DNA of 31,075 bases. It comes from Alphaproteobacteria bacterium (GTDB taxonomy: Bacteria; Pseudomonadota; Alphaproteobacteria; JBFXJJ01). The notes beneath the pieces are model-generated. The model saw nothing but the letters and a program-made list of their open reading frames with translations. It made no database searches and was not told where the DNA came from. The translations under genes and the position numbers were made by a program. Positions 3,072-19,065 of the stretch are shown here, in pieces. The stretch covers positions 1-31,075 of the forward strand of contig JBFXJJ010000020.1 in the NCBI GenBank assembly GCA_050175015.1. Direction: 5' to 3'. Each line of letters starts with the position of its first letter. Positions within the stretch are counted from its first letter, which is position 1.

Positions 3072-3074
3072 AGA

Positions 3075-3105
3075 AAAAAGCCCCGAGAATTTCTCGAGGC
3101 TTTTT
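3075..3105 (-). terminator. Rho-independent terminator-like hairpin downstream of the tRNA 3' fragment
   Basis: AAAAAGCCCCGAGAA-T-TTCTCGAGGCTTTTT stem flanked by A/T tracts. Confidence 0.65.
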
Positions 3106-3134
3106 ATTTTGTAACATACTGATGTTTATATCAA

Positions 3135-3186
3135 ATTTTGGTTGCGGGGGCAGGATTTGAACCATGCGACCTTCAGGTTATGAGCC
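3135..3186 (-). repeat. att site: 3' half of tRNA-Met(CAT), anticodon loop to CCA
   Basis: Minus strand GGCTCATAACCTGAAGGTCGCATGGTTCAAATCCTGCCCCCGCAACCA; 5' half absent; 50 bp identical to 20714-20763. Confidence 0.92.
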
Positions 3187-3313
3187 AAATTTTTAAGTGT
3201 TTTCTTGACATTTGCTAAAATTTATTACAACATATTTTCTATTATAAAACAATAGGTTATTTAACTTTCTAACATTATCTTGTTTTATTAAGATTAATAA
3301 AAATTTCTAAAAT

Positions 3314-3336
3314 GTGTAGCACCAGCGTAGCACCAG
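3314..3336. promoter_or_regulatory. Putative integrase arm-type sites, left end of island 2
   Basis: GTAGCACCAG tandem with 11-bp period; GTGTAGCACCAGCGTAGCAC recurs exactly at 20627-20646. Confidence 0.7.
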
Positions 3337-3359
3337 AAATTTTGCAAGGGGGTAAAAAT

Positions 3360-4229
3360 ATGAAAAAACAAACGCTAATGTTAATTCCTTACATATCATC
3401 TTTTTTGTTAGGATTTTTATTTTTTAAATTATCCTTAATTATCAGCAACGATGACTATAAGAGCATAATATCAAGTATATCCGCTTCTTTTATATCTATA
3501 CCAATTCTTTTTTTAGGATATGACTCAATAAAAAGCATATCCTCTAAAAAATTAAATAAAGAGATATTTGATTATGCCAAAGTTCATATAGACAAAGAAT
3601 TTTTATCATCACTAAATAAAATACATAAAATAATATATCCTAATGAAGAAAGAACATTCAGTAATCTTGAAAAAATGTTACACATACAAAGTCCTGAAAT
3701 CATAAAACAACAAATACAAGATAAAAAAATTTTAGGATTCACAATACTAAAACAGTGGGAAGAAGAACAAAAGAAAATAGAGGATATAATTAAAAATCCA
3801 TTAATATTAAAAGCTATTGATGATGATGGTATTATATCCCTTATACAAACATTAAAATCCATACGAGCAATTGAACGTATAGTTTTTAGAGATGATTTCC
3901 TTACTGAAAAATCAAAAAACAGAGAAACAACATACGAACTTGTTCCCCCAAACGATAACAATCCTGAATATCCAGAACGATATCTTTTGCTAACCAAATT
4001 AAATGGTAACAAAGGCATTGTTACGGATTTTGGTGATATAAAGAAATATAGCCTAAAAGATGTTTTGCACTCTTTTAAAATAGCTCCGCAATATCAAGAA
4101 ATATTTTCAAGCCTATTATTTAGTTTGATTAAAGATTTTAACTATTGGTTCTCTACAACAGGAAAAGAAATATTAATCGATACCAAAGAATTTAGAATAA
4201 TAGAAAAGAGAAATCCTGAAAATGCCTAG
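3360..4229 (+). CDS. Hypothetical protein with two N-terminal transmembrane segments
   Basis: ATG at 3360 follows a G-rich RBS-like run; two hydrophobic stretches in the first ~55 aa; stop overlaps the integrase start. Confidence 0.7.
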   Translation: MKKQTLMLIPYISSFLLGFLFFKLSLIISNDDYKSIISSISASFISIPILFLGYDSIKSISSKKLNKEIFDYAKVHIDKEFLSSLNKIHKIIYPNEERTFSNLEKMLHIQSPEIIKQQIQDKKILGFTILKQWEEEQKKIEDIIKNPLILKAIDDDGIISLIQTLKSIRAIERIVFRDDFLTEKSKNRETTYELVPPNDNNPEYPERYLLLTKLNGNKGIVTDFGDIKKYSLKDVLHSFKIAPQYQEIFSSLLFSLIKDFNYWFSTTGKEILIDTKEFRIIEKRNPENA

Positions 4230-5385
4230 CCATAAAATAAATTTTACCAAGCCGACACTTGCCAAACTTGCACCCGCTGAGAGTGGCAAGCGAACCTATT
4301 ATTATGATGAAACCGAAAAAGGACTTGTGCTTGATGTTACCAAAACAGGGGCAAAAAGCTTTTATCTGTATCAACGCATAAACGGCAAGCCAGAGCGGGT
4401 TTTTCTTGGTCGCTTTCCTGATATTTCAATTGAAAATGCCCGCAAAATGGCAAGAGAGAAAAAAGGCAAGATTGCCGAAGGCAAAAATCCTCAAAATGAA
4501 AGGCGGGCTTTACGGGCAGAAATGACCTTTAAAGAACTTTTTGATTTATATATGGAAAGATACAGCAAGCCTCATAAACGCTCTTGGAAATATGACGAAA
4601 GAGAAATTAACAAGTTTCTGCCTCATTGGTTTAACCGCAAAATATCATCTATCAGAAACGATGAAGTTTTAATGCTTCATAAAAAGATAGGTGAAAACAA
4701 TGGCATTTACGCCGCCAACCGCTTACTTGAAAGAATACGCTCCATTTATAACAAAGCGATTGAATGGGGTTATGACGGTTTAAATCCTGCTTTAAAAATC
4801 AAAAAGTTTAAAGAAAAATCAAGGGATAGATTTTTATCACCTGATGAACTGCCCCGATTTTTTGAAGCTTTAGAAAAAGAAGAAAATATCTCTGCTAAAA
4901 ACTTTATTTTAATGTCGCTTTTTACAGGGGCAAGAAAATCAAACACGCTTGCCATGGCTTGGAATGAAATAGATTTTAATCTTAGAACTTGGCATATTGA
5001 CGAAACTAAAAACGGTGAAAGTTTAACCCTGCCCCTGCCCGATAAAGCAATTGAACTTTTGCAAGAGATTAGAAAAACTTCAAACAGCGAATGGGTTTTT
5101 CCAAGTCCCGTTGATAAAAGCCAGCACCTTGCCGACCCTAGAAAAGCCTGGCATAGAATATTAAATGAAGCTGGCATTGAAGATTTAAACATTCACGATT
5201 TAAGAAGAACCTTTGGAAGCTATCAGGCTGTAACTGGTGCTAATAGTTACATAATCCAAAAGTCTTTGGGGCATAAAAGCTCACAATCAACCGCCGTTTA
5301 TGCAAGGCTAAACCTTGACCCCGTAAGGGCATCAATCAATACCGCAACCGATATGATTATGAATCTTAGCGCTACCAAGAAATAG
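4222..5385 (+). CDS. int: Tyrosine integrase (P4-like, with N-terminal arm-binding domain)
   Basis: N-terminal YYD..EKGL.L.V...G.KSF and LGRFPDISIENAR; catalytic motifs TGARK, HDLRRT and LGH...T..Y. Confidence 0.95.
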   Translation: MPSHKINFTKPTLAKLAPAESGKRTYYYDETEKGLVLDVTKTGAKSFYLYQRINGKPERVFLGRFPDISIENARKMAREKKGKIAEGKNPQNERRALRAEMTFKELFDLYMERYSKPHKRSWKYDEREINKFLPHWFNRKISSIRNDEVLMLHKKIGENNGIYAANRLLERIRSIYNKAIEWGYDGLNPALKIKKFKEKSRDRFLSPDELPRFFEALEKEENISAKNFILMSLFTGARKSNTLAMAWNEIDFNLRTWHIDETKNGESLTLPLPDKAIELLQEIRKTSNSEWVFPSPVDKSQHLADPRKAWHRILNEAGIEDLNIHDLRRTFGSYQAVTGANSYIIQKSLGHKSSQSTAVYARLNLDPVRASINTATDMIMNLSATKK

Positions 5386-5393
5386 GAAAAAAT

Positions 5394-6002
5394 ATGGGCA
5401 AGAAATACGATAAAAAATTTGAAGAAAAATATAGGTCTCGTTTGGAAAAAATAGACCTTCATTTAAAGGCGCTGGAAGAAAAAGAAGATTATATAAACAA
5501 CTACGCTTTTCATGCTGATTCGGCTATGAATCAGTTATCTTTTATATTGCTATCAATGACAGGGAACAGCTTTAGAGATGTAACAGAAGCTTATTTAAAA
5601 CACTGTGGCAAAGCAAGATGCAAACTAAAATATCCACGAAGCAAAAAACTTGCTTACTGTGATATAATCACAATCCTTGTCAATCGAGGCTCGCCGAAAT
5701 CTCAAGCGGTGAGTTTAGTTGCTAAAACCCGCAATAACTCAAAAATAAGCGTATCTGGTTTTGAAAAAGAAATGAAAAAATCGCTTTCTGCCTATAAAAA
5801 CAAAGCAGAAAACAACCCTAAAGACATAACTTTTCCAGAGAGCTTCATATTAGAATCTTATATTATAAAAGCACTTCTTAAAGAAATGAGAGATAATGCC
5901 GACTTTGAAGAGCTGGATAAAGAATGCCCCAAAGCATCAAAGGCTTTTAAATCAGTTTTAGAAGAAGTTGAAAAACATCACACGCCGTTAGATGCCTTTT
6001 AA
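5394..6002 (+). CDS. Hypothetical protein
   Basis: 202-aa ORF with AGGA RBS directly after the integrase; no recognised family. Confidence 0.65.
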   Translation: MGKKYDKKFEEKYRSRLEKIDLHLKALEEKEDYINNYAFHADSAMNQLSFILLSMTGNSFRDVTEAYLKHCGKARCKLKYPRSKKLAYCDIITILVNRGSPKSQAVSLVAKTRNNSKISVSGFEKEMKKSLSAYKNKAENNPKDITFPESFILESYIIKALLKEMRDNADFEELDKECPKASKAFKSVLEEVEKHHTPLDAF

Positions 6003-6123
6003 AAACAAGTTTTAAAAACCAATTTATTTTTAGGGGAAGTTTCGATTTCCCCTATATTTTTAAAGCAATTTTACTTCAAATAATCCTGTTAGAAAAAACT
6101 TTTAACTATCAGGAGAAACAAAA

Positions 6124-6324
6124 ATGACTTTAAGTAAATTGCTAACCCCTAAAGAGGTTTCAGAAATTCTTGGGGTATCCATAGAAACCTTGAATATCTG
6201 GAGAACGACCAAACGTTATCCCTTACCTTATGTAAAATCTGGAAGGCTTGTCCGTTATCGGGAAGAAGACATTGAAACCTTTATTGCTAATCGCTTGCAA
6301 AATGAGACTGTAGCTCAAATTTAG
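6124..6324 (+). CDS. Excisionase / helix-turn-helix DNA-binding protein
   Basis: LLTPKEVSEILGVSIETL..WR...LPYVK.GRLVRYR signature; AGGAG RBS. Confidence 0.88.
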   Translation: MTLSKLLTPKEVSEILGVSIETLNIWRTTKRYPLPYVKSGRLVRYREEDIETFIANRLQNETVAQI

Positions 6325-6339
6325 CTGGGATTCAAGCCA

Positions 6340-6582
6340 ATGAAATACATTAACGCCAAGCTCGATTTGATTATCAATTTAGGCAAAATCAAAGAAATGC
6401 TTAAAAAGGGCTTTTCTAAACTAAACATCTATCAAGAGCTGAAGCAAAAAGGCGAAATTAGATGTTCGCAAGCTTCATTTTATCGAGTTACTCGAAAATA
6501 CATTGATTTAAACGAAATTGATAACGCCATCAAGACCGAAGAACAGCCTAAAAAATCCCTGTTCAAAAACAACAACTTTTAA
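6340..6582 (+). CDS. traK: TraK-family oriT-binding accessory protein (IncP-like)
   Basis: IKEML.KGFS...IYQELK..GEI..S..SFYR..RKYI resembles the TraK family pattern; lies directly upstream of the traL-like gene. Confidence 0.65.
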   Translation: MKYINAKLDLIINLGKIKEMLKKGFSKLNIYQELKQKGEIRCSQASFYRVTRKYIDLNEIDNAIKTEEQPKKSLFKNNNF

Positions 6583-6594
6583 GGAGACCAAACC

Positions 6595-7326
6595 ATGCAG
6601 ATACATATTTTTTCACACACCAAAGGCGGAGTAGGAAAAACCTATATCGCTTATTTACTAGCTCAATATTATGCAAGCAAAAAGCTTGATACCATAATCA
6701 TTGATGCCGACCCCGTTAATGAAAGCCTTTTTGGCTTTAAAGGCTTAAACGTAAAAGCCCTAAACCTTATGGAAAACCATAAAATCGATATGGAAAAACT
6801 AAAACTGCTTTTCGAGAACCTGCCAAACGCCGATAAAATGATTATTGATATTGGTATGAGCTTGGTTTTGCCGTTTTATAAATATATGGCTGAAGGCAAT
6901 GTCATAAAGGCATTAGAAGAGCAAGGACACGAAGTTTTGCTTCATTCGATAATCACCAATGGAAGCGAGCAGGAAAGCTCTGTAAAAGGCTTGCAAATGC
7001 TTTCTGATAAGTTTGCAGACAGCAAGATTATGGTTTGGCTTAATAACTTTCTTGGAGCTAGAAAGCTAAAGCCCGATGAAATCGCAATCTTAAATGACTT
7101 AAAGGCAAAAGATCGCATTTGTAACTATGCGATTTTGCCAGATGCTTTTGCAATAGACAGGCAAAATAATAAAACCATTCTCAGCGACAACTTAAACAAA
7201 CTGTTAGCAGAAAAGCTGACCTTTAATGAAGCCAGCGACTGTCAAAGTTTGGACTACCCCGCCATTGAAAAGCTGTTAGAATTTAAAAAGCTTAATTATC
7301 AAGTTATCGAAAGCGTAAATTTATAA
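6595..7326 (+). CDS. traL: TraL-like ParA/MinD-type P-loop protein (IncP Tra1)
   Basis: KGGVGKT Walker A; AQY, IDADPVN, GFKGLNV, EQGHEVLLH, VWLN and KLTFNEA segments collinear with RP4 TraL as recalled. Confidence 0.8.
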   Translation: MQIHIFSHTKGGVGKTYIAYLLAQYYASKKLDTIIIDADPVNESLFGFKGLNVKALNLMENHKIDMEKLKLLFENLPNADKMIIDIGMSLVLPFYKYMAEGNVIKALEEQGHEVLLHSIITNGSEQESSVKGLQMLSDKFADSKIMVWLNNFLGARKLKPDEIAILNDLKAKDRICNYAILPDAFAIDRQNNKTILSDNLNKLLAEKLTFNEASDCQSLDYPAIEKLLEFKKLNYQVIESVNL

Positions 7327-7342
7327 TCCTTACCCACCGACC

Positions 7343-7380
7343 AAAATCCCCTTGTAATCCTAGCGTTACAGGGGGTTTTT
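7343..7380 (+). terminator. Rho-independent terminator after traL
   Basis: AAAATCCCCTTGTAA and TTACAGGGGGTTTT arms followed by T run. Confidence 0.7.
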
Positions 7381-7643
7381 GGAAAAGTTTAAAAATATCT
7401 ACTTTATTAGGTTCTGCCATAATAATCGCATCAACAAGGGTAATTTTAAGGAAACAATTCTCTTAAAATTATAAATTTGTTGCAAGAATCCTAAACGTTT
7501 TAATATTTATTGTCAGCCCCTTTAACTAAGTGTCTAAATTATTCTGACGACAAACAACACCAACAACACAATTGTTTTTACTTGCATCACACTGCTATCA
7601 CTAATAAGTTTAATAACAAGCACTTATTAAAGGAAACTTTGTC

Positions 7644-8330
7644 ATGTTTAAAATTATACTTCTTAGCTTAATCATAACAATATTCAACACACCCATTGCC
7701 ATATCACAAGAAACAAAAGAAAAACTATACGATAAAATTCCCTCTAAATTATTTAATAAGAGTATAGGCACTGTTGGTGGTGGAGACTTTGAAGCTTTCA
7801 ATTATAGAATGATTGCCCCTTTTAGAAGTTCCACCAGAGGCAAAATGTATCTAGAAAGAAGTGATATTAAAGATATGATAGATGCTAAAATCTATGAATT
7901 CAGAATGTTCAAAGTTATTTCAATGCTTTCACGCGATAAAAATTATGATGGCGTAATATCTCAAGAAGATTTAGATAAAATCTTAAAAGCTAAATTTCTC
8001 GAAAACCCAACAACCGAAGAACAAAAAAAAATAAATGAAGAACAAGCCGAAATTATGAAGGATGACCTAAATAAAGATGGTGAAATTTCACTAAAAGAAG
8101 CTAACTATGTTGATGATGAATATAAGAATAAAATAATCGACGACATAAAAAATCGTTTGGAACCATATTTTGAATATGGAGACTTTAACAACGATAATAT
8201 TGTAACTCTTGATGAAATGAGACAATTAGTAAGCAATATATTTAATATTTTAGATTTAGATGGCAGTTCTTTCATATCAACAGAAGAATTTCAAGCCTAT
8301 AAACAATACAGAGAAGAAAAAGGACTATAA
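7644..8330 (+). CDS. Secreted EF-hand calcium-binding protein (paralog 1)
   Basis: Signal-peptide-like N-terminus; loops DKNYDGVISQED, DLNKDGEISLKE, DFNNDNIVTLDE, DLDGSSFISTEE. Confidence 0.85.
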   Translation: MFKIILLSLIITIFNTPIAISQETKEKLYDKIPSKLFNKSIGTVGGGDFEAFNYRMIAPFRSSTRGKMYLERSDIKDMIDAKIYEFRMFKVISMLSRDKNYDGVISQEDLDKILKAKFLENPTTEEQKKINEEQAEIMKDDLNKDGEISLKEANYVDDEYKNKIIDDIKNRLEPYFEYGDFNNDNIVTLDEMRQLVSNIFNILDLDGSSFISTEEFQAYKQYREEKGL

Positions 8331-8376
8331 CAACGCAACTTTTTGACTCACATTATAAACAAAAGGTAATTTAACT

Positions 8377-9051
8377 ATGTTAAAAATTATATTTCTTAGC
8401 CTAATCATAACTATATTTAATACACCATTTGCAGTATCACAAGAAACTAAAGAAAGCCCATATGATAAAGTGCCAACAAAATTATGGGGAAAGAATTTAA
8501 TAGTAATTGATAGTGACTACGAAAGTTTTATGTTTAACAGATTACAGCCATTCAAACTGATGCATAAAAAAGATAAAACCAAGTTAGTAAGAAGTGATAT
8601 AAAAGACAAAATAAACACTGAAATTGATAATTTAAGAACGAGTAAATACTACGAAATCTTCATACATGATATGAATTTTGATGGCATCATCTCTAAAGAA
8701 GATTTAGATGAAAGTTTAAGACTGGAATATTTAGCTTTACCTATGTCAGATCAACAGAGGCGAAGAGATAATAAACGTAAAAAAATCATGGAAGCTGACC
8801 TGAATAATGATGGTGAAATTTCATTAAAAGAAGCTAGCACTATTGACGAGGAATATAAAAACAAAAAAATAGAGGATATAAAAAATCGTTTAGAACCATA
8901 TTTTGAATATGGAGATTTAAATAATGACGATATAGTAACACTAGATGAAATGAAAGAATTAGCTAGTAATACATTTAAAATTCTAGACTTGGACGGCAAT
9001 TCAGTAATATCAATAGAAGAATTTCACGCTTATAGGGAATACACGAAATAA
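8377..9051 (+). CDS. Secreted EF-hand calcium-binding protein (paralog 2)
   Basis: Same architecture; loops DMNFDGIISKED, DLNNDGEISLKE, DLNNDDIVTLDE, DLDGNSVISIEE. Confidence 0.85.
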   Translation: MLKIIFLSLIITIFNTPFAVSQETKESPYDKVPTKLWGKNLIVIDSDYESFMFNRLQPFKLMHKKDKTKLVRSDIKDKINTEIDNLRTSKYYEIFIHDMNFDGIISKEDLDESLRLEYLALPMSDQQRRRDNKRKKIMEADLNNDGEISLKEASTIDEEYKNKKIEDIKNRLEPYFEYGDLNNDDIVTLDEMKELASNTFKILDLDGNSVISIEEFHAYREYTK

Positions 9052-9460
9052 AAAAGATTATAATGAAATAACATTTTTAGATATATAAAAAAATAGGCAA
9101 TAAACCAATAGAATAAGAAATTAAAAAAATCAAAATACTTTAGAAATTATTGAAAAAGCTACTGCAAATTAACCAGCCTCAGTTGCCTTTTTTAGTTTTT
9201 TCAACAATCTAATTTTATTTTTTATGTAATTTGGGAATCTTGTTCCAAAATTGCAAGGTAAATTTTAAAAGGCAACTTTAAATATGGGTGTTTATGGGCG
9301 TGATTTTGGTTTTTAAACGCAATCTTGACAATAGCTTGTTTTATAAGGCTTTTATCTTTTTTTATTTTTAATTATCATTTTTTATAAAAATTTATCTGCA
9401 AAATGATTTTGGATTAAAATAAAACGCTTGAAATCATTGGAAAACATAGGCTTTATTATT

Positions 9461-9617
9461 AATTATCAAAAATTATCAAATTTTATCCAAGCTGTTTTTG
9501 CAGGTAGAAACATGCCCGCTTTTAAGGTAAATCTAGCAAAATAAAACTCTTAAAAATCAACAGCTTTATCAAAAATTATTAAATCTTATCAGCTTTTAGG
9601 GTTTATCAATTTTTATC
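9461..9617. repeat. Phased TTATC iteron array
   Basis: TTATC at 9463, 9473, 9483; 9566, (9576), 9586; 9603, 9613, in 10-bp steps. Confidence 0.65.
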
Positions 9618-9626
9618 ACGGTTTTA

Positions 9627-9706
9627 GAAGGCAGGATAGTATCAGCAATATTGCTAATATCCTGCCCATAAATGGGATTACCTTATTCGCAATTTCATTG
9701 CTCAAC
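9627..9706 (+). other. IncP oriT-like element, copy 1
   Basis: GGCAGGATAG...TATCCTGCC hairpin followed by CTTATTCGCA-N7-TGCTCAAC; both blocks and their spacing resemble RP4 oriT as recalled. Confidence 0.65.
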
Positions 9707-9760
9707 AAGGTTAAGTATGCACCAAAATACCTTTTAAAACTTTGGAAAGCAACAGACAAG

Positions 9761-11509
9761 CTACGTTCCAATATGTCTTTCTTGGTAATCATCAATGACA
9801 GCGACAATTCTATTAAGGATTGGTCTAAAACCATCAAAATTTATATTTTTATAGTTAGGTTTAATAACCTTTTCTGCAAAAATATGCTTTCCATACTGAT
9901 TTGTGTTGCCTGATGAAGTGTTTTCAACATTAAAAGTTTTGCCTTCAAGTGGTGTATTTAAAACGCTTTGTTCAAAAAAATCTTCTATTTTTGTTAGCTT
10001 ATTATCTATTTTGGGAATTGGAACAACATAAAGGTTTTCTTTGATATAATAGAAGTCTTTATCTCCTACTATTTCTTGGTCTGGATTTGCTTTTTTCTTT
10101 TTTTTCTTTTTATCATTATCGGAAGGAAAATAAATTTCTTTGATTGTAGAATATATCTCTCTTGCTCCATCATCATTATCAATTAAAAATATAACAGGGT
10201 GCTGTTTTCCGTTACATTTATAGGGCAATAAAAGCCGTTCATAGGCAGATATTAAATATTTCATACCACTTGTGCCTTCGGCTAAATTACAAACATTTGC
10301 TATTCTTTTGGTATAATTAAAAAATTTAAAATTATTTTTAATTATGTTGTTCTCTTGATAGGCAAGCTTAGGGTAATTTTGCCAAAGAATATTTACTGCA
10401 CATTTTATATAAACCTTGTCTGTTTTGCCTTCACAATAAATTACTGGTTTATCTAAAAAGTAAAAATTCTTAAAATAAATAAACTTCTCATATAATTTTC
10501 TTATTCCTTCAATTGTATTAGATGTTTTGCTTATATTCTTTACATAAAAAATATGCCCTAAAATGCCTTGAAGTTGATTAATAGTGTTTTTGGGTTTTGA
10601 TGTTTTTTCTTCACCTATTTCTTCTTGTTTAGAACCATTGATATAAAAACTACCAGTTCTAAATAATGAGTTACACATTGAACGAGCGTGATAATAATAT
10701 TCTTTTGTAACATTAGCTCTTTTATTAACCACCAAACCTGTAACCGATTGTCTTGAAAGTTTATACTGCATACGGCTTTTTTTAGAATTAATGCTAAAAC
10801 CTGAACCTTCAATAATTTTTGTTAATTCTTCGCCTGCACCCCATTTAGATTCTTCATCATTTAGTTTAAAAGCAACCTCGCATGGGAATGTTTTTTTGTT
10901 CGTAGAAAAAGTAATATCATCAGCATATCTTGAATATGTTAAGCCATATTTTTTTGCCAACTTTACTAGTCTAACATCTAATATCTGAGCAACTAAATTT
11001 GATATAACTGGGGAGCAAGGACTTCCTTGTGGTAATTGGTTATTGTAGCAGGCAATTTGGGCGATAATAGTTGCAACTTTTTCAGTTAAATTAAAATTAT
11101 TGTTTTTAATAAAAAAACCTCTTACACGACCGAAGTTAATTGATGGAAAAAAATCAGATAAATCGATATTAAAAACATAACGTTTCCCTGTATGAAGTTT
11201 GGCATTAGTTACTATTGATAAGTTTTTTTGGAATCCGTGAGAAATTGGCTTGTTTTTATGGTTTTTATTTATTTCTTCAACGCAATCATAAAGTAGTTCA
11301 GTTAATCGTTTTTGTAATAGTTTTAATTTTTCTGTAGGTGCTGTAATTTCTCTGTTGCCACCAGATTTTTTTGAGATTTCAAATTTAGTATATCTTTCTT
11401 CTTCTAAAATTTTATATAAAATAAAAGACAAATACTTAGGCTCATAGCCTAATAGTTTAGCCAAATCTTTTAAATTTGTTGTTTTTTTTAAATCTTCTAA
11501 CCTACTCAA
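9761..11509 (-). CDS. Retron Ec67-type reverse transcriptase fused to a TOPRIM nuclease (type I-C)
   Basis: NAKLH (NAxxH), DLSDFFPSI, LPQGSPCSP, YADD and VTGL motifs; C-terminal YCEGKTD...DNDDG TOPRIM; TTG start. Confidence 0.93.
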   Translation of the reverse strand: MSRLEDLKKTTNLKDLAKLLGYEPKYLSFILYKILEEERYTKFEISKKSGGNREITAPTEKLKLLQKRLTELLYDCVEEINKNHKNKPISHGFQKNLSIVTNAKLHTGKRYVFNIDLSDFFPSINFGRVRGFFIKNNNFNLTEKVATIIAQIACYNNQLPQGSPCSPVISNLVAQILDVRLVKLAKKYGLTYSRYADDITFSTNKKTFPCEVAFKLNDEESKWGAGEELTKIIEGSGFSINSKKSRMQYKLSRQSVTGLVVNKRANVTKEYYYHARSMCNSLFRTGSFYINGSKQEEIGEEKTSKPKNTINQLQGILGHIFYVKNISKTSNTIEGIRKLYEKFIYFKNFYFLDKPVIYCEGKTDKVYIKCAVNILWQNYPKLAYQENNIIKNNFKFFNYTKRIANVCNLAEGTSGMKYLISAYERLLLPYKCNGKQHPVIFLIDNDDGAREIYSTIKEIYFPSDNDKKKKKKKANPDQEIVGDKDFYYIKENLYVVPIPKIDNKLTKIEDFFEQSVLNTPLEGKTFNVENTSSGNTNQYGKHIFAEKVIKPNYKNINFDGFRPILNRIVAVIDDYQERHIGT

Positions 11510-11530
11510 AATAAAAAACCTTTAAAAATA

Positions 11531-11669
11531 AAGCTTATGGACACTCTTATGCGAGCACAGGGTTAAAGTATTATATTTTCCTCTGCCGTTCAAAGATTAT
11601 AGTAGCAAACGAAACCTAACAATGTTTCCTTATATCGTGATACACGATAACAAATCTGTCCATAAGCTT
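11531..11669 (-). ncRNA. Retron msr-msd non-coding RNA
   Basis: Perfect 13-bp inverted repeat AAGCTTATGGACA (11531-11543 and 11657-11669); unpaired G at 11656 in AGATTTGTT context as in Ec67; hairpin TATCGTG-TAT-CACGATA; directly upstream of the RT. Confidence 0.85.
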
Positions 11670-11710
11670 AAAAAATATATTAAAAGCTATTTTCTTAAAA
11701 TCAATTTAAA

Positions 11711-11802
11711 AATCGTTGAGCAACATCGTTGCGAATAAGAATTTTCCGCATTGGAACAAGGGGCAGGTGAAAAGTAGTATTACTTTTACTATCCTGCCCT
11801 CT
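11711..11802 (-). other. IncP oriT-like element, copy 2 (inverted relative to copy 1)
   Basis: Minus strand GGGCAGGATAGTAAAAGTAATACTACTTTTCACCTGCCC...CTTATTCGCA-ACGATGT-TGCTCAACGATT. Confidence 0.65.
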
Positions 11803-11964
11803 TAAATGCTGATAAATTTTAAGAAATTGTAATTTTTGATAAAAATTAAAAAACTCATATGTTCATCGCAAAAAACATATTGAAGAAAAATAACTTTGCT
11901 TAAAAGTTTAGCTGTGATATATTTTAATATATAACCATAATTTTTGATATATTGGAATATATTT

Positions 11965-12252
11965 ATGATAGCATCAATTAAACCGATTATTGCCCGATTA
12001 AAAAAGGCTCGAGAAGACAAAGGCTTAAATCAAAGAGCTTTAAGCTCTAAAATTGCTATTCCTCAAAGTCATATTTCAAAAATTGAAGCGGGCGATGTTG
12101 ATATAAAATTATCAAGTCTTGTTGAAATTGCAAGAAACCTTGATTTAGAGCTTATGCTTATACCAAGAGAAAAAGCAACGCTTGTAAATAATATAATAGA
12201 AAATAATGGAGATAATTCTTCGCCAGCCTATTCGTTAGATGATGAGGAATAA
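11965..12252 (+). CDS. hipB: HipB-like Xre-HTH antitoxin
   Basis: LKKAREDKGLNQRAL...IPQSHISKIEAG...KLSSL; 2 bp upstream of hipA. Start could extend to 11944. Confidence 0.8.
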   Translation: MIASIKPIIARLKKAREDKGLNQRALSSKIAIPQSHISKIEAGDVDIKLSSLVEIARNLDLELMLIPREKATLVNNIIENNGDNSSPAYSLDDEE

Positions 12253-12254
12253 AA

Positions 12255-13478
12255 ATGGCTGAAATTGATGTTTTAAAAATCTATTTAAATGATTATTTAG
12301 TTGGAACGCTTAACTTGCTTGCCTCTGATAGAAGCATTTTTATTTTTGATGAGAATTATTTAAACGACAAAAACCGTCCTGTTTTAAGCTTGTCTTTTAA
12401 AGATAAATTTGGCAAAATCATAACCAGTCAGCCGATTATTCAAACCAAGATACCGCCCTTTTTCTCAAATCTACTGCCAGAAGGTCATTTGCGAACATAT
12501 TTAGCTAATCTTGCTGGCGTTAAAGACAAACGAGAGTTCTTTTTACTAAAAGCGTTGGGGGAAGATTTATCGGGTGCGGTTATTGCTAAGCCTATTGAGA
12601 ATAATCCTTATTTAGATGAAACTCTTATCAATGAACAAAAAGCCGAAGAAAATCAAAATATTTTAAAGTTTTCATTGGCTGGCGTGCAGTTAAAATTTTC
12701 GGCTTTATTAGAAGCAAGCGGAGGCTTAACTATTCCAGCACATGGAGTTGGTGGTTCTTGGATTGTAAAACTTCCCTCTGCTAGTTTTGAAAACGTGCCA
12801 GAAAATGAATTTTCGATGATGATGCTGGCTAAAAAAATCGGCATTGATATTCCAGAAATTAAGCTGATAGACATTAAAAGCATTTCTAATCTTCCCGAAG
12901 GTATCGGGAGCATCAAAGGCAAAGCTTTGGCAGTTAAGCGTTTTGATAGAGATGATAACCAAAGGGTTCATATTGAAGATTTTGCTCAAATTTTTGGGCT
13001 TTTTCCTGAAGAAAAGTATGGTAAAGGCAGTTATAAAAATATTGCCGAAGTTATTTGGGCTGAAATCGGCGAAGACGGCATAACCGAATTTGTAAAAAGG
13101 CTCGTTTTCAATGCTTTAATCGGCAATGCAGATATGCATATGAAAAACTGGTCATTGATTTATAAGGACGGAAGAACCGCAAACCTTGCTCCTGCTTATG
13201 ATTTGGTTTCAACGATTGCCTATATTCCAGATAACAATATGTCGTTAAACTTGGTTAAATCTAAGAGGTTTGATGAATTAACCCTTGATGCCTTTAAACA
13301 TTTTGCTGGCAAAGCAAAACTTCCTGAAAAAATGGTTATCAAAACTGTTACTGAAACCGTTGAAGCTTTTAACGATTTATGGAAAGAAGCAATAAAAGAC
13401 CTGCCCCTTGCAAAATCAACCATTGAAACCATTGAAAAACATATGCAAACACTGCCAATTGCAAACCATAGAAACTAA
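12255..13478 (+). CDS. hipA: HipA-family Ser/Thr kinase toxin
   Basis: PPFFSNLLPEG, FSLAGVQLK, KRFDR, HIEDFAQ, GNADMHMKN and LAPAYD motifs. Confidence 0.95.
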   Translation: MAEIDVLKIYLNDYLVGTLNLLASDRSIFIFDENYLNDKNRPVLSLSFKDKFGKIITSQPIIQTKIPPFFSNLLPEGHLRTYLANLAGVKDKREFFLLKALGEDLSGAVIAKPIENNPYLDETLINEQKAEENQNILKFSLAGVQLKFSALLEASGGLTIPAHGVGGSWIVKLPSASFENVPENEFSMMMLAKKIGIDIPEIKLIDIKSISNLPEGIGSIKGKALAVKRFDRDDNQRVHIEDFAQIFGLFPEEKYGKGSYKNIAEVIWAEIGEDGITEFVKRLVFNALIGNADMHMKNWSLIYKDGRTANLAPAYDLVSTIAYIPDNNMSLNLVKSKRFDELTLDAFKHFAGKAKLPEKMVIKTVTETVEAFNDLWKEAIKDLPLAKSTIETIEKHMQTLPIANHRN

Positions 13479-13568
13479 TTCACAACCAGACATTATAAAT
13501 AGAAATCAAAAGTGGTTTGTGGTATTAAAAAACTAATCAAGAGAATAATTTAAACTTTGAGGCATGAC

Positions 13569-16313
13569 ATGAGTTTATCTTGGAATGAAATAAGAGATAG
13601 GTCTATAGAATTTCAAAAAGAATGGGAAAATGCTGGATATGAAAAAGGCGAAACTCAAAGTTTTTACAATGATTTTTTTCAGGTTTTTGGAGTAAATAGA
13701 AGAAGGGTTGCATCATTTGAAGAACCAGTTAAAAAATTAGGTGATAAAAGAGGTTTTATCGATTTATTTTGGAAGGGTAAGTTACTTGTTGAACAAAAAT
13801 CGAAAGGACGTGACTTAAAAAAAGCGAAAGAACAAGCATTAGACTACTTTCCCAATTTAAAGGACACGGAATTACCTCGTTATATCTTATTGTCTGATTT
13901 TCAAAATTTTGAGTTTTATGATTTAGAAGAAGATACTGAATATAACTTTCCTCTTAAAGAATTTTCCAAAAATATTCATTTGTTTGGTTTTATAATTGAT
14001 CGTGAAACATATAAAATTACAGAACAAGAAGAAATAAATATAAAGGCATCAGAATTACTTGGTAATTTGTTTGATGAATTAAAAACATCTGGCTATAGAG
14101 AACATGATATTGAATTATTTTTAGTAAGAGTTTTGTTTTGCTTGTTTGCTGAAGATACAGAAATTTTCAATTCTGGACAATTTACTCAATTTATTGAAAA
14201 GAAAACTAACATTGATGGGGCAGATTTAGGTTCGAAATTAGTTGAATTATTTCAAGTTTTAAATACCCATGAAAATAAACGAAATACTAACTTAGATGAT
14301 GATTTAAATGCATTTTGTTATATTAATGGCTCATTATTTGAAACTTTAACAACAATTCCTTCCTTTAATTCAAGTATGAGGAAAGCACTTTTAAAGTGCT
14401 GTCATTTTGATTGGAGCAAAATATCTCCAGCTATTTTTGGTTCATTATTTCAATCTGTTTCAAATCCTGAAAAAAGACGAACGCTAGGGGAGCATTATAC
14501 ATCTGAAAAAAACATCTTAAAAACTATAAAACCTTTATTTTTAGATGATTTATGGGCTGAATTTAAAAAGAACCGTAATAATAGAAATAAGTTAAAAGAG
14601 TTTCATAAAAAAATATCTAAATTGAAATTTTTAGACCCTGCTTGTGGTTGTGGCAATTTCTTGGTTATTAGTTATAGAGAAATTAGACGACTTGAAATAG
14701 AAGTATTAAAAGAATTAGGAAAAGAAAAAAAGCAGTTTGAATTAGATACTAAAATCCTTTCTTTATTTGATGTTGATAATTTTTATGGTATTGAAATTGA
14801 AGAATTTCCAGCAAAAATTGCAGAAGTTGCTATGTGGTTAACAGACCATCAAATGAATCTAGAATTGTCTAAAGCTTTTGGAAAATATTATGCTCGAATT
14901 CCACTAAAAAAATCTGCAAAAATAATAAATAAAAATGCTTTAAGATTTGATTGGACTGATATCGTTAAACCAAGTGAATTAAGTTATATTCTGGGCAACC
15001 CTCCCTTTATCGGCAAACAAGAGCAAGAAGAAGAACAAAAAAAAGATATAGAATTCGTTTTTAATAATTTTCAAAATGCAGGTGTGCTTGACTATGTATG
15101 TTGTTGGTATATTAAATCCGCTCAATACATAAAAGGAACTAATATAAAAGTCGGCTTTGTTTCAACTAACAGCATTACCCAAGGAGAGCAGGTTGGCATT
15201 TTATGGAACGAATTATTAAATAAATATAAAATTAAAATACATTTTGCTCACAGAACCTTTGCTTGGGATAATGAAGCAAGAGGTAAAGCCAAAGTGCATT
15301 GCGTTGTTATTGGCTTTGCCAACTTTGATACTAAAAACAAAACAATCTTTGATTACCCTAGTTCAAAATCAGATCCCATTGAAAGAAAAGCTAAAAACAT
15401 AAACCCCTATCTTGTTGATTACAAAGATACTTTATTGTTAAGCAGAAATAGTCCTATTTGTAATATTCCTGAAATTGTTTTTGGTAATATGCCTAATGAT
15501 GGCGGAAATTTCCTTTTCACAGAAGAAGAAAAAAAAGAATTTATTAAAAAAGAACCTAAAGCAAAAAAATATATCAAACACTTTTTAAGTGCTAAAGAGT
15601 TTATTAATGGAATTAATCGTTACTGCTTATGGCTAGTTGATGCAACTCCACAAGAATTAAAAGAAATGCCCCTTGTTATGGAAAGAATTAACAAAATTAA
15701 AAATAGGAGAACTAATAGCACTAGAAAAGAAACAAAATTATTAGCGGAATACCCAACAAAATTTGGAGAAATAAGGCAACCTCAAAAAGAGTATATTCTT
15801 ATTCCAAGACATTCGTCGGAAAGAAGAAAATATATACCATTAGGTTTTTTTAAGCCTAACTTTATTGTAGCCGATAGCTGTGCCTGTGTTCCAAACGCAA
15901 ATCTTTATCATTTTGGCATATTAACTTCAAAAATGCATATGACTTGGACACAAGCTGTTTGTGGAAGATTAAAAAGTGATTATCGTTATTCAAATACTAT
16001 TGTTTATAATAACTATCCATTTCCTAAAGAACCAACAAATAAAGCAGTTAAAAAAGTTGAGGAAAAAGCTCAAAAAATATTAGATGTTAGAAAAAAATAT
16101 AATGATTGTTCTCTTGCAACTCTTTATGACCCTAATTTTATGCCCCCTGACTTGGTAAAAGCACATAATGAATTAGATAAAGCAGTTGACGCTTGCTATG
16201 GATTTAAAAAAGAAACCGACTTAGAAAGAATTTCCTTTTTGTTCGAGCTATATGAAGAATACACTTGCGAGTTACTTTCTAAAACTAAAAAACAATCCAA
16301 GTCAAAACCATAA
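13569..16313 (+). CDS. MmeI-like type IIL restriction-modification enzyme (endonuclease, N6-adenine MTase, TRD)
   Basis: MSLSWNEIR N-terminus, GFIDLFW...LLVEQKS nuclease motif, DPACGCGNF motif I, GNPPF motif IV, GRLKSDYRYS. Confidence 0.92.
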   Translation: MSLSWNEIRDRSIEFQKEWENAGYEKGETQSFYNDFFQVFGVNRRRVASFEEPVKKLGDKRGFIDLFWKGKLLVEQKSKGRDLKKAKEQALDYFPNLKDTELPRYILLSDFQNFEFYDLEEDTEYNFPLKEFSKNIHLFGFIIDRETYKITEQEEINIKASELLGNLFDELKTSGYREHDIELFLVRVLFCLFAEDTEIFNSGQFTQFIEKKTNIDGADLGSKLVELFQVLNTHENKRNTNLDDDLNAFCYINGSLFETLTTIPSFNSSMRKALLKCCHFDWSKISPAIFGSLFQSVSNPEKRRTLGEHYTSEKNILKTIKPLFLDDLWAEFKKNRNNRNKLKEFHKKISKLKFLDPACGCGNFLVISYREIRRLEIEVLKELGKEKKQFELDTKILSLFDVDNFYGIEIEEFPAKIAEVAMWLTDHQMNLELSKAFGKYYARIPLKKSAKIINKNALRFDWTDIVKPSELSYILGNPPFIGKQEQEEEQKKDIEFVFNNFQNAGVLDYVCCWYIKSAQYIKGTNIKVGFVSTNSITQGEQVGILWNELLNKYKIKIHFAHRTFAWDNEARGKAKVHCVVIGFANFDTKNKTIFDYPSSKSDPIERKAKNINPYLVDYKDTLLLSRNSPICNIPEIVFGNMPNDGGNFLFTEEEKKEFIKKEPKAKKYIKHFLSAKEFINGINRYCLWLVDATPQELKEMPLVMERINKIKNRRTNSTRKETKLLAEYPTKFGEIRQPQKEYILIPRHSSERRKYIPLGFFKPNFIVADSCACVPNANLYHFGILTSKMHMTWTQAVCGRLKSDYRYSNTIVYNNYPFPKEPTNKAVKKVEEKAQKILDVRKKYNDCSLATLYDPNFMPPDLVKAHNELDKAVDACYGFKKETDLERISFLFELYEEYTCELLSKTKKQSKSKP

Positions 16314-16336
16314 TGACTAAAATATAGGTAAATGTT

Positions 16337-16936
16337 ATGCCCACACGCATAGAAACAAACTATTTTGAACTCGCTTTTTATATTATTGGCTCTTTTGGAG
16401 GTGCAGGAGCTATTATTTTGGCAGTATCTTCTTGGTTGGGCAAAATTTGGGCTAATCGTGTTATGGAAAAAGACCGAGCAAATTACTCTAAAGAGCTTGA
16501 AAAATTAAGAGCAGAACTTGAAAAATCAAACAACAAAGAAATTGAAGAGATTAAAAACGAACTTTCTATATATAAAGAGCAATATTTAAAAGGTTTTAAC
16601 GACAAGATTAATATTTATCGTATGGTAGTTGATATTGTATCTGAAGCTTTAGGAGAATTTAATGCCGCAGAGCTTACTAAAATACCTCTAAACATAAAAA
16701 CTCTTAATCAAATTGATCGATTACGCATAAAAGCCTATGGCTATCTTGCAATGATGGCTCCACAAAACGTTATGGATAAACAAGATGTCTTGATGGACTA
16801 CCTTTTAAATGTTGCTTATAGCAATGAAAAATATGATTGGAAACGAACCAGAGCTTATTCTTTGGATTTGTTAAATGAAATACGCAAAGATTTAAAATTT
16901 GATGAAAACCCTATAACGTATAATGGCAAACTATGA
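16337..16936 (+). CDS. Hypothetical protein with N-terminal TM helix and coiled coil
   Basis: Hydrophobic IIGSFGGAGAIILAVSSWLG then an E/K/L-rich segment; ATGA overlap with the next gene. Confidence 0.75.
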   Translation: MPTRIETNYFELAFYIIGSFGGAGAIILAVSSWLGKIWANRVMEKDRANYSKELEKLRAELEKSNNKEIEEIKNELSIYKEQYLKGFNDKINIYRMVVDIVSEALGEFNAAELTKIPLNIKTLNQIDRLRIKAYGYLAMMAPQNVMDKQDVLMDYLLNVAYSNEKYDWKRTRAYSLDLLNEIRKDLKFDENPITYNGKL

Positions 16937-19050
16937 ATGAAACAACAGTTCCCTCAACTCTAAACGGATTAATGAAGACAATAAAAAAGTCTAAATATCC
17001 TTTAGCTCCAATTTACGAAGCCATATCAAATTCTATGCAGTCTATTAGCCAAAAAGGAGCAAGAAGCAAAGAAAACCCTGAAATAACAATAATTTTCAAT
17101 TTCAGAAGCCTTTTTAACGATATGCGAAATCTTGAAACTATTATTATCTCAGATAATGGCATTGGCTTTACAAATGAAAATTTTAAACGATTTGAGACCT
17201 TTCTTGATAACAGCAAAGGATTCAACAACAGAGGAACAGGAAGGCTTCAATTTCTCCATCGTTTTGATGATATTGAAATTGAAAGTTTTTATACCGAACA
17301 AAATACTTTTTACAAACGTAGTTTTTCTTATAACAGTCAAAATGCAATATATAATTCAGAATTAACAGAACAAACCGAAGATACAAAGCAAGTGAAAACA
17401 ACCTTAACTTTTAAATTAGGGGCAAATCTTGATAAGGAAAAAGAGTATTATAATTCATTAATAATCGAAAGTTTTGCAAAAGAAATAAAAAAGCATTTCC
17501 TGCTGTATTATCATCTTGAAAATACACCACCAACCATAAATATAAAATTTAATAACAACGAACAAGAAGAAGCCGTTTTAACCATCAAACCAAGCGATAT
17601 GCCCAAACCTAATAAAACAGGAAAGCTGTCTTTAAATTACTCAAAGTTTAACTATAACAAAGAAAAAGAAATTGAATGGCTTAATGTTCCAGATAAAAAA
17701 GAGCCTATTAATTGGGCTTATTTTAAATTATCTGAAAACGATTTTTCGCATAATGCTGTTTATTTGTGTAGCAACAACGTTGTTATCGAGCATTTTAACT
17801 GTGAAATAATCAGAAAAAATGATGCGGTGAATGGATATTTTTATTTAACCTTATTTTATGGTGATGTTTTTGATAAAAACACAACTCATTCGGTTGATGG
17901 CTTCACATTTCCAGGCAAAAAGGAAAAAGAAAGCACGATTAGACAGTTAGATTTTCTATGCCCAGATGAAGAATTTTTATTTTTTGACACAATCAAAGAA
18001 GAAATAAGCAAAATTATCCCTAACATATATGTCGATATTGTAGAGATAAAAAAAGAACAAGAGGTAAGAGTTAAGGAAATTGCAGAAAAGCACGGAATTC
18101 CTTCTGAATTAGCAGAAAAAATCAAAATAGATGTAAACGATGACGAAGATAAAGTTACAAATAAGCTTTATAAAGCACAGGCTGAAAACTTTGCCTCTGG
18201 TAATCAAAAAATCTTTAAAATTTTTGAACAATTAAATTCTTTAACACCTCAATCTGATAACTACCAAGAAGATTTGCGAGCAAAAAGCACAGAATTGCTA
18301 TCACTCATACCTCAACAAAACAAAGAGGAATTAAGCCGTTATATCATTCGTAGAGAAATAGTAGCTGATATTCTCAAAAAAATTCTGAATAACGAGTTAG
18401 ATTATCAAAAAATTGATACTGACAAGAAACAAAGAAAGGATAAAGAAGGTTTAATTCATGATTTAATATTTAAGAGAAAAAGCCCAAACACCGAATCCTT
18501 AAATGATCTATGGATACTTAATGAAGAATTTGTTCATTTTGAAGGGTGTTCTGATCTTCCCTTAAATCAAATAGCAGATTCTGAAGGGCAAAAAATATTA
18601 CAAAACATAGACGATAATACATTAAAAAAATATGGCATAAAGCCATTAAAACGACCAGATATCTTTCTTTATATAGAAGAAGGTAAATGCATACTTGTAG
18701 AATTAAAAGCGATTGATGTTGATTTATCAGATTGCCTCAACCAAATGACTAAATATTGTAATGTAATTGCTAATTTTTCATCAAAAAGATTTGAAAAATT
18801 CTTCTGTTATCTTATTGGCGAAAATATAAATAGAATTGACTTGCCTGGTGATTATGAACCAACAATAACAGGAGATTGGATAAAAAGACCTGATTTGCCT
18901 ATAAAATCTATTGAAGAAGGAAAAGAAGATATAACTATTGCAACAATTCAAACTGAGGTTATAAAACTATCATCAATTTATGATAGAGCATATAGACGCA
19001 ACAAGAGTTTTGCTGACAAACTAGGATTAAGGCAAAAAACATCAAAATAA
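16933..19050 (+). CDS. GHKL (HATPase-like) ATPase fused to a C-terminal PD-(D/E)xK nuclease-like domain
   Basis: EAISNS, DNGIGF and RGTGR GHKL motifs; RPD...ILVELK nuclease-type motif. Confidence 0.8.
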   Translation: MNETTVPSTLNGLMKTIKKSKYPLAPIYEAISNSMQSISQKGARSKENPEITIIFNFRSLFNDMRNLETIIISDNGIGFTNENFKRFETFLDNSKGFNNRGTGRLQFLHRFDDIEIESFYTEQNTFYKRSFSYNSQNAIYNSELTEQTEDTKQVKTTLTFKLGANLDKEKEYYNSLIIESFAKEIKKHFLLYYHLENTPPTINIKFNNNEQEEAVLTIKPSDMPKPNKTGKLSLNYSKFNYNKEKEIEWLNVPDKKEPINWAYFKLSENDFSHNAVYLCSNNVVIEHFNCEIIRKNDAVNGYFYLTLFYGDVFDKNTTHSVDGFTFPGKKEKESTIRQLDFLCPDEEFLFFDTIKEEISKIIPNIYVDIVEIKKEQEVRVKEIAEKHGIPSELAEKIKIDVNDDEDKVTNKLYKAQAENFASGNQKIFKIFEQLNSLTPQSDNYQEDLRAKSTELLSLIPQQNKEELSRYIIRREIVADILKKILNNELDYQKIDTDKKQRKDKEGLIHDLIFKRKSPNTESLNDLWILNEEFVHFEGCSDLPLNQIADSEGQKILQNIDDNTLKKYGIKPLKRPDIFLYIEEGKCILVELKAIDVDLSDCLNQMTKYCNVIANFSSKRFEKFFCYLIGENINRIDLPGDYEPTITGDWIKRPDLPIKSIEEGKEDITIATIQTEVIKLSSIYDRAYRRNKSFADKLGLRQKTSK

Positions 19051-19065
19051 TTTATTGTATAGAAA

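Follow-up and report, generated by a model that had tools for sequence, protein, structure and literature searches.

Putative IncP-type transfer origins around a retron on a mobile defence island of an uncultured alphaproteobacterium

The retron locus and its flanking elements

The stretch of DNA analysed here (the window) is 31,075 nucleotides long and constitutes the whole of contig JBFXJJ010000020.1 (C20) of the alphaproteobacterial assembly GCA_050175015.1, which comprises 2.53 Mb in 49 contigs. It carries a type I-C (Ec67-family) retron around which two structured elements face inward, and a third copy of the element lies further along the contig. In their anatomy these elements resemble the origin of transfer (oriT) of IncP plasmids. 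They are probably conjugative transfer origins on mobile defence islands, with the bracketing of the retron a by-product of one origin-plus-cargo block landing beside another origin. The features on which this reading is built are as follows; C2 and similar labels denote other contigs of the assembly.

9453–9621, plus strand: iteron array 1, TTATCA-type repeats with a period of about 10 bp, upstream of copy 1 (from a direct-repeat family and copy alignment)
9630–9706, plus strand: putative oriT copy 1, with a hairpin carrying the nick motif in its arms (9630–9666), a small hairpin, and box 2 (9682–9706)
9707–9744, plus strand: conserved tail behind box 2 of copy 1, common to the C2 oriT (blastn, 9623–9744 against C2:76148–76025, 79%)
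9761–11509, minus strand: retron reverse transcriptase-Toprim fusion, type I-C, Ec67 family, 582 aa (PADLOC RT-Toprim_I-C, 737.7 bits)
11531–11669, minus strand: retron non-coding RNA region, with a1/a2 repeats at 11531–11543 and 11657–11669 (13-nt perfect inverted repeats, 113 nt between the arms)
11715–11798, minus strand: putative oriT copy 2, with box 2 (11715–11739), a degenerate small hairpin, and the hairpin (11762–11798)
11803–11860, minus strand: iteron array 2, TTATCA type, forming an inverted repeat with 9565–9605 (copy alignment)
29796–29935, plus strand: iteron array 3, GTCTTAAA type, 10-bp period (direct-repeat family)
29950–30028, plus strand: putative oriT copy 3, with the hairpin (29950–29986) and box 2 (30004–30028)

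The retron was assigned to type I-C from the fusion of its reverse transcriptase (RT) to a Toprim domain and from an upstream non-coding RNA (ncRNA) region with a1/a2 repeats. The RT scored 720.9 bits against the NCBIfam model retron_Ec67_fus (cut-off 450), and the ncRNA region gave no match in Rfam. From the end of copy 1 to the stop of the RT reading frame (9761) the distance is 54 bp, and from the a1/a2 repeats to box 2 of copy 2 it is 45 bp. A first-pass annotation, made from the sequence of the window, had described two inward-facing elements lying about 55 bp from the RT stop and about 40 bp from the ncRNA. The measured distances and the coordinates from the pattern search and the hairpins agree with that description.

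Box 2 was located with the pattern CTTATTCGCA-N5-10-TGCTCAAC, which matched three times in the window (9682–9706 and 30004–30028 on the plus strand, 11715–11739 on the minus strand) and in none of 100 shuffles. Each box 2 is preceded by a GGCAGG...CCTGCC hairpin. When the three copies were folded as single-stranded DNA on both strands, z-scores between -3.5 and -5.6 were obtained relative to shuffled sequences. The consensus nick-region motif of MOBP-type oriTs is YATCCTG/Y, the slash marking the nick, and this motif was found on one strand of the elements. On the strand to be nicked, an inverted repeat directly precedes the nick from the 5' side, and the interiors of its stems vary between copies while complementarity is kept. 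The fuller form TATCCTGCC occurs three times in the window (9630–9638 on the minus strand, 9658–9666 and 11790–11798 on the plus strand), a number reached in 0 of 100 shuffles, and in copies 1 and 2 it lies on the strand complementary to the element. As the first-pass annotation had noted, copy 1 thus bears the motif on both strands. In copy 3, and in three other copies of the genome, TGTCCTGCC is found instead.

Comparison with the IncP origin of transfer

The IncP references were R751 and the IncP-1 alpha plasmid R702, taken as stand-ins since the RP4/RK2 record BN000925 was absent from the collection. In the traJ-traK intergenic region of R751, GGGCAGGATG... and an inverted repeat are followed by CCTTATTCGCG-N7-CGCTCAACG. 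In R702 the corresponding order is GGGCAGGATAG...CCTTATTCGCA-N8-TGCTCAACG, exactly as the first-pass annotation had given for RP4. Both plasmids have in common GGCAGGAT, CTTATTCGC and GCTCAAC(G), with a spacing of 54–55 nt, and the corresponding spacing in the copies of this genome is 52–59 nt. Hence the likeness to IncP oriT that had been proposed, in block order and in spacing, holds on the plasmid sequences, and the CTTATTCGC-hairpin-GCTCAAC block stands at an IncP-like distance from the nick motif. A gapped pattern of 23 bases, GGCAGGA-N35-60-CTTATTCGC-N7-11-GCTCAAC, matched R751 at a single site, the oriT in the traJ-traK interval, with no further match in the remaining 50 kb of the plasmid; it matched the window three times and the shuffles not at all, although this pattern was tuned after R751 had been seen and is not a blind test. 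The IncP-type core is widespread, being matched in 411 plasmid records, and the Rfam family RF01760 ('traJ-II'), on which R751 scores 111.7 bits, is the IncP oriT core.

The likeness extends to GGCAGGAT as the nick motif of the complementary strand, the inverted repeat, the CTTATTCGC-loop-GCTCAAC(G) hairpin with its compensatory changes, and the TraI(MOBP) relaxases and TraJ/NikA-, TraK- and TraL-like proteins encoded in the genome. Several features are unlike IncP-1. The window elements are AT-rich and fall below the Rfam threshold, they have an extra small hairpin, and where IncP has its TraK-binding region they carry short iterons whose type varies. Cargo genes rather than traJ-traI come after box 2, and in the relaxase-bearing islands the relaxase gene is found on the iteron side, oriented towards the oriT. 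Moreover, in IncP-1 (RF01760) GGGCAGGAT pairs with an ATCCTGC located after box 2, whereas in the window copies the partner arm is located before box 2 and closes the first hairpin. The first-pass annotation had regarded the motif in both hairpin arms as a departure from RP4. The position of the motif does differ from IncP, but its presence on both strands is not unique, because IncP oriTs have another ATCCTGC, in inverted orientation and beyond box 2, which belongs to the outer stem of RF01760. Judged from sequence, the window elements are relatives of the IncP/MOBP-type oriT.

A family of copies in the genome and beyond

The genome holds nine copies in total, eight full and one degenerate. 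A regular-expression scan returned the full copies, at C2:76064–76141, C3:9032–9110, C4:195799–195873, C8:54699–54776 and C8:75034–75108 in addition to the three in C20. The ninth (C8:75375–75445) was found with a profile built from the eight. All copies show the same order of blocks: iterons, hairpin, small second hairpin, box 2. The hairpin arms are GGCAGGA/TCCTGCC around an interior that is variable yet complementary, and the centre of box 2 is a 5-bp palindrome. The iteron arrays consist of 100–140 bp of short direct repeats with a period of about 10 bp, and their type varies by locus; at least four types (TTATCA, GTCTTAAA, TTTGCAA/TTCTCAA and TTCCAC) are combined freely with four hairpin types. 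Covariation in the box 2 stem was assessed on 14 sequences, all picked by pattern (the eight full copies, an element of another alphaproteobacterium, G094, four metagenome elements, and R751). In this set three of the five base pairs have changed on both sides and 98.6% of cells pair, a score reached in 0 of 500 shuffles.

Copies 1 and 2 are 77–80% identical to the oriTs on C2, C3, C4 and C8 (blastn). Copy 3 offers a closer comparison: an 88-nt core (window 29943–30030) is 97.7% identical to C3:9030–9117, and the flanks on both sides are unrelated (blastn). This core looks like a discrete unit of recombination or conversion. The conserved core behaves as a mobile patch of homology whose two ends are recombination break points. 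Homologous recombination inside it could be enough for cargo swapping without a dedicated enzyme. On C8 (75029–75447) a full copy and the degenerate one stand head to head, 260 bp apart, with only iterons between them and a tRNA 3' fragment alongside. The degenerate copy has lost the right arm of its hairpin; what remains of the hairpin is like that of window copy 1, and its iterons are like those of copy 3.

Outside this genome, the strict box 2 pattern matched 11 metagenome loci, of which five were true elements by eye and by regular expression; the other six matches were without a hairpin and look like chance or coding matches. Viral contigs gave no match to the strict pattern. A search of 200 relatives, none closer than the same class, matched in one genome, G094, where six loci carry the element. 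A blastn search of copy 1 against 72,556 plasmids gave just two chance-level matches (E 0.3). The stem layout in which the partner arm precedes box 2 also occurs in G094 and in the five metagenome elements, and by this feature they and the window copies form a low-GC subfamily, so that the arrangement is not a one-off. Two of the G094 loci (C195, 9251–9307 of locus L052, and C200, 2948–3004 of L053) are oriTs with tandem box 2 hairpins, 33 bp apart.

The cargo slot behind box 2

A short sequence on the far side of the retron region, here called the leader, allowed the extent of the variable DNA to be judged.

13474–13531, plus strand: leader, which adjoins the oriT directly on C4 and marks the far edge of the inserted block

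In blastn comparisons, 13463–13526 matched C4:195881–195945 (84.6%) and 13481–13531 matched C3:7161–7111 (90%). On C4 nothing lies between oriT and leader, on C3 the gap is 1.87 kb, and in the window, where the leader stands between hipA and the gene for an MmeI-type enzyme, it is 3.76 kb. AbiEi/AbiEii, which read towards the oriT, fill the C3 slot without a second oriT, and a type I HsdR gene comes next. Cargo also stands directly behind box 2 on C2 (the methylase HsdM) and at a metagenome locus, L029 (a PLD-SNF2 helicase and a methylase). The comparison of these loci shows that islands of this family have a cargo slot of variable content just after box 2. The leader itself, about 58 nt long (AACTAATTCACAAYCAGACATTATAAA...), stands before the MmeI gene in the window and before HsdR on C3, and has no co-oriented gene on C4.

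Since the homology of copy 1 to the tail of the C2 oriT stops at 9744 and the leader begins at about 13474, the variable block is about 9745–13473. These 3.7 kb include the retron, copy 2 with its iterons, and the HipBA pair, and the block therefore extends past copy 2. Its layout is the IncP one, two divergent units around an oriT, with the retron in the place of traJ-traI and HipBA on the TraK side. The junctions of the block are not at the nick motifs; the homology breakpoints are at least 80 nt away from them, which argues against relaxase-catalysed insertion. The first-pass annotation had proposed that the elements delimit exchangeable cargo modules. That they sit at cargo boundaries is supported, but the exchanged unit is the block, and the inverted pair does not delimit it.

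The proposal that the inverted pair bounds a module that can be exchanged or inverted is not supported. Among the nine copies of the genome there is one convergent pair (in the window) and one divergent pair without cargo (on C8); the remaining five stand singly, with no second copy inside 18 kb. Pairing was also absent from the five true metagenome elements, within the stretches available (1.2–12 kb). Seven loci carrying relatives of the retron, drawn from 185,579 species genomes (39–54% identity), were likewise compared, and an oriT-like element was present in 0 of 7. As to cargo between inverted pairs, the genome contains the single cargo-bearing convergent pair of the window, and one further pair was found in G094, with one of its members decayed.

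Rearranged forms were looked for by aligning the assembled contigs of four sequencing runs to positions 2500–21500, bearing in mind that contigs drop rare forms such as rare inversions and circles. In run X1, the probable source run, one contig covers 3155–19149 with 0 differences; it was separately built, probably from the same reads, and shows that the arrangement is more than an artefact of this one assembly record. Runs X2 and X3 gave only pieces at 88–96% identity, which are uninformative on linkage. Among the joints listed (41 further ones lie beyond these, and contigs only were used) there was no credible inversion or excision joint, deletion or circle; those listed have sides shorter than 40 nt and can be attributed to oriT copies elsewhere. 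Two joints with sides of 28 and 37 nt were traced in this way: 9714>13472 is the oriT-leader junction of C4 mapped onto the window rather than a rearrangement, and 11853>9623 is the head-to-head pair of C8. A joint from 3185 to 20717 in run X4, which would correspond to excision of the island, has one side of only 21 nt and is not credible.

The island and its neighbouring genes

The retron and copies 1 and 2 belong to a 17.5-kb island (3135–20771) with an integrase and flanking attachment repeats.

3135–3192, minus strand: 3' half of initiator tRNA-fMet, left attachment repeat (58-nt direct repeat with 20714–20771, 95% identical)
4222–5385, plus strand: tyrosine integrase (Pfam Phage_integrase, 1.1e-29; Arm-DNA-bind_3)
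6340–6582, plus strand: TraK-like small protein, 45% identical to a DUF5338-like protein beside the C2 relaxase
6595–7326, plus strand: TraL-like P-loop ATPase (37% over 155 aa to R751 TraL, E 1e-34)
11944–13478, plus strand: HTH (HipB-like) and HipA toxin-antitoxin pair, reading away from copy 2 (Pfam HTH_3; HipA_C, 7.7e-53; Couple_hipA)
20714–20771, minus strand: 3' half of tRNA-fMet, right attachment repeat (direct repeat with 3135–3192)

The 58-nt repeats match the 3' half of the tRNA-Met(cat) gene, an intact copy of which terminates contig C18, and ARAGORN found no whole tRNA in the window. From left to right the island encodes the integrase, the TraK-like protein, TraL, two EF-hand proteins, copy 1, the retron, copy 2, HipBA, the MmeI-type enzyme, two unknown open reading frames (ORFs), HigBA and a trypsin-like ORF. 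The similarity of the TraK-like protein to R751 TraK is weak (26% over 39 aa, pairwise E 5e-7), and the TraL-like protein scores 136.5 bits with the NCBIfam model TraL, under its cut-off of 360 bits. Pfam scans of the window placed no primase or Rep gene in the island. With an integrase, TraK/TraL-like genes and oriTs but no relaxase, and with oriTs related to those of relaxase-bearing elements, the island has the composition of an oriT-only 'hitcher'.

Other features of the window deserve mention. Between the TraL-like gene and copy 1 (7644–9051) lie the two EF-hand proteins, tandem paralogues of 228 and 224 aa whose DNA is 78–81% identical, an unusual cargo for a bacterial island. The two ORFs between the MmeI enzyme and HigBA (16337–19050; 199 and 705 aa) have no Pfam or PADLOC match and are candidate unknown defence genes. 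A HigA-like HTH gene is duplicated (2524–2811 and 19421–19708, 89% identical), each copy just inside one of two successive tRNA-fMet fragments, an arrangement that suggests a tandem array of related islands. Beyond the island, IS3-family copies at 23125–24300 and 28629–29800, with at least 300 nt of identical sequence, stand on either side of a TetR-HlyD-MacB efflux operon (25042–28000) in what looks like a composite transposon. The first 305 nt of the window are 97% identical to C3:1–305, inverted, and the two contigs end in this shared repeat. A promoter scan was uninformative (9 sites, against 14.3 in shuffles).

Relaxases and transfer genes

Nine matches to the relaxase family PF03432 were found in the genome, six of them at E<=3e-27. 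The C2 relaxase scores 335 bits with NCBIfam TraI_MobP (cut-off 250) and is 34% identical to R751 TraI over 380 aa, a stretch that includes the HxDxxxHxH region. Its island is arranged in the order primase (Toprim-DUF3631), TraK-like (DUF5338), NikA/TraJ-like, relaxase, chemoreceptor, ParD-ParE, iterons, oriT and the type I methylase HsdM. The relaxase gene is 3.3 kb from the oriT copy on C2, 4.5 kb on C3 and 4.1 kb on C8. On C4 a relaxase also lies 4.1 kb from the oriT, but past a tRNA-fMet fragment. Elsewhere in the genome there are three loci for type IV coupling proteins and one VirB4. Among the metagenome loci, L030 has a NikA-like gene alone behind box 2, and at L034 the canonical oriT-traJ-traI order was seen, with NikA-like and relaxase genes behind box 2.

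Proposed mechanism and alternative explanations

In IncP plasmids the repeat is bound by TraJ and the DNA next to it by TraK; the relaxase nicks YATCCTG/Y on the 3' side of this repeat, and from the nick the transfer proceeds 5' to 3'. By analogy with these plasmids, a TraI-type relaxase and a TraJ/NikA-like protein would nick the strand ...CTATCCTG/CC, complementary to the element, and the nicked strand would be piloted, iteron side first, through a type IV secretion system. The 17.5-kb island may be mobilised in trans by one of the MOBP relaxases of the genome. Copy 1 would be the backbone oriT of the island. The block of about 9745–13473 would consist of copy 2 with divergent cargo, the retron next to its box 2 and HipBA next to its iterons, and is most likely a piece of another island, or else a small mobilisable replicon, that was captured, inverted, in the cargo slot of copy 1. 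The bracketing by two oriTs would then be a by-product of modular recombination at oriT-adjacent hot spots, with the pair not the boundary of the exchanged unit.

Several observations weigh against this account. No window copy reaches the gathering score of RF01760 (40 bits), the best being box 2 of copy 2 at 17.9 bits (E 5.6), and the profile of the eight copies ranks the R751 oriT first in the whole plasmid, yet only at E 2.3. Pfam and PF03432 scans found no relaxase in the window, and none between 3135 and 20771, so that the window copies would need a relaxase supplied in trans; the hairpin types of copy 2 (type B) and copy 1 (type C) stand beside no relaxase gene of the genome. The argument from an empty slot is drawn from 51–65 nt of similarity at three loci of one genome. 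TATCCTGCC lies on the plus strand on both sides of the retron and is in principle usable by a relaxase. Finally, G094 has a second convergent pair (C151, 6989–16550 of locus L051), in which a complete oriT is faced by a decayed one around defence cargo consisting of an Eco57I-like methylase (1340 aa), a PLD-SNF2 helicase (1121 aa) and a 112-aa ORF. This pair may hint at a recurrent process. Its decayed oriT lies among broken recombinase and RepC remnants, and we therefore read the pair as a junkyard juxtaposition. The two gene types, methylase and PLD-SNF2 helicase, also stand directly behind the oriT in metagenome locus L029, in the opposite gene order.

The plus-strand motifs and the G094 pair speak for a relaxase-driven cassette. 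With the nick motif on both arms, either strand could be cut, and the slot would be filled and emptied by HUH strand transfer. The retron, between TATCCTG/CC at 9658–9666 and at 11790–11798 (plus strand), would leave, enter or be exchanged as a single-stranded circle, the G094 pair being a second case. Each of the two direct TATCCTGCC copies does lie 3' of an inverted repeat, iteron and hairpin types are shuffled among copies with homology breaking near the nick, and relaxase-mediated oriT-oriT recombination and integration is known for TrwC of R388 (PMC3264647). Nevertheless, homology to other islands stops at about 9744 and about 13473 instead of at the nick motifs, the C3 slot was filled without a second oriT, the C8 pair encloses no cargo, the retron relatives lack the elements, and the listed joints, in contigs that drop rare forms, include no deletion or circle joint at the nick sites. 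We consider such a cassette very unlikely. The conserved part might instead act mainly as an RNA leader, a traJ-II cis-regulatory motif controlling the gene behind it, and not as a DNA site. In Rfam the IncP oriT core is entered as traJ-II, a cis-regulatory RNA (also a table entry in PMC2864571), copy 2 reads in the same direction as the retron, and covariation is seen in the stem of box 2. On the other hand, no co-oriented gene stands behind copies 1 and 3, the motif is the oriT between traJ and traK in R751 and R702, and the genome has its six strong MOBP relaxase matches. A chiefly regulatory role is thus unlikely, though a role as RNA leader could coexist with oriT function.

That the iterons and hairpin are sites of island replication or partition (arrays for a DUF3631 primase or a RepAM-type initiator) rather than transfer origins is suggested by the array of repeats of about 10-bp period beside every copy and by the Toprim-DUF3631 primase in the C2 island. 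Against this, the core of hairpin and box 2 is homologous to the IncP oriT, the window island has neither primase nor Rep gene, and TraK, for which a TraK-like gene is present, binds the same side of the nick in IncP. Replication or partition as the role of the whole element is therefore highly improbable, while the iterons may well have a separate function beside the oriT. Lastly, nine related copies and several contigs ending in repeats raise the question of whether repeated oriT copies were wrongly joined in the assembly to give the inverted arrangement. The hairpin interior and spacer of copy 1 are not those of copy 2, neither exceeds about 80% identity in blastn with copies from other contigs, and the X1 contig reproduces the arrangement, though not fully independently; an assembly error is scarcely credible. 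The reading retained is that of transfer origins on mobile defence islands, brought together around the retron by insertion of a block.

Relation to known systems

The nearest counterparts are oriT-only integrative elements ('iOriT', minimal hitchers). According to a preprint, oriT-only islands are frequent, defence systems concentrate near oriT, and 15% of oriT-bearing islands carry more than one (bioRxiv 10.64898/2026.01.13.699239). The window island is like these elements in having an integrase and an oriT without a relaxase, in oriTs that are related to those of co-resident relaxase-bearing elements, in defence genes near the oriT, and in multiple oriTs, as found in that minority of islands. 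It is unlike those described there in that its oriTs are non-identical, inverted and 2 kb apart and that TraK/TraL-like genes are kept. In addition, the preprint deals with six clinical Pseudomonadota species, whereas the window island comes from an uncultured alphaproteobacterium. The preprint also cites plasmid R6K and ICEclc, each with two oriTs on one element (cited in bioRxiv 10.64898/2026.01.13.699239). In both of these the two oriTs serve the element's own relaxase, whereas the window island has none and one of its oriTs would have arrived with foreign cargo.

The short structured sites beside defence cargo, and the variable slot at a fixed position of the backbone, also recall integron gene cassettes and invertase switches. 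Unlike those systems, there is no dedicated integron integrase or invertase beside the sites and no direct repeats around each cassette, and slots are filled with one site. Elements with two oriTs were reportedly described by Avila et al. in 1996 and by Miyazaki and van der Meer in 2011. Recombination by R388 TrwC or by a Mob/oriT system in Bacillus gives joins that fall at the nick, unlike the window, where the homology breakpoints lie away from the nick motifs by the distance given above and no recombinant forms were seen among the contig joints listed. The common feature is a pair of oriT copies in cis, on which relaxase strand transfer can act (TrwC, PMC3264647; the Mob/oriT tool, PMC4902927).

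Taken as a whole, the locus is of a known kind: integrative mobilisable or oriT-only islands that have an IncP-type oriT, sometimes two oriTs, and defence genes close by. What is new is the uncultured alphaproteobacterium (landfill-type metagenomes) as a member, the rearranged stem layout and the inverted pair. The reading of paired oriTs as a device for shuffling cassettes does not hold up. What emerges in its place is a large family of IncP-type oriTs in an uncultured low-GC alphaproteobacterium, nine copies in 2.5 Mb, on tRNA-integrated islands with anti-phage cargo (the retron, AbiE, restriction-modification, toxin-antitoxin pairs) directly behind the origins. This agrees with the picture drawn in recent work, of oriT-only islands as common hitchers and of defence genes as clustering close to oriTs, and it provides concrete combinations of oriT and relaxase for the testing of cross-mobilisation.

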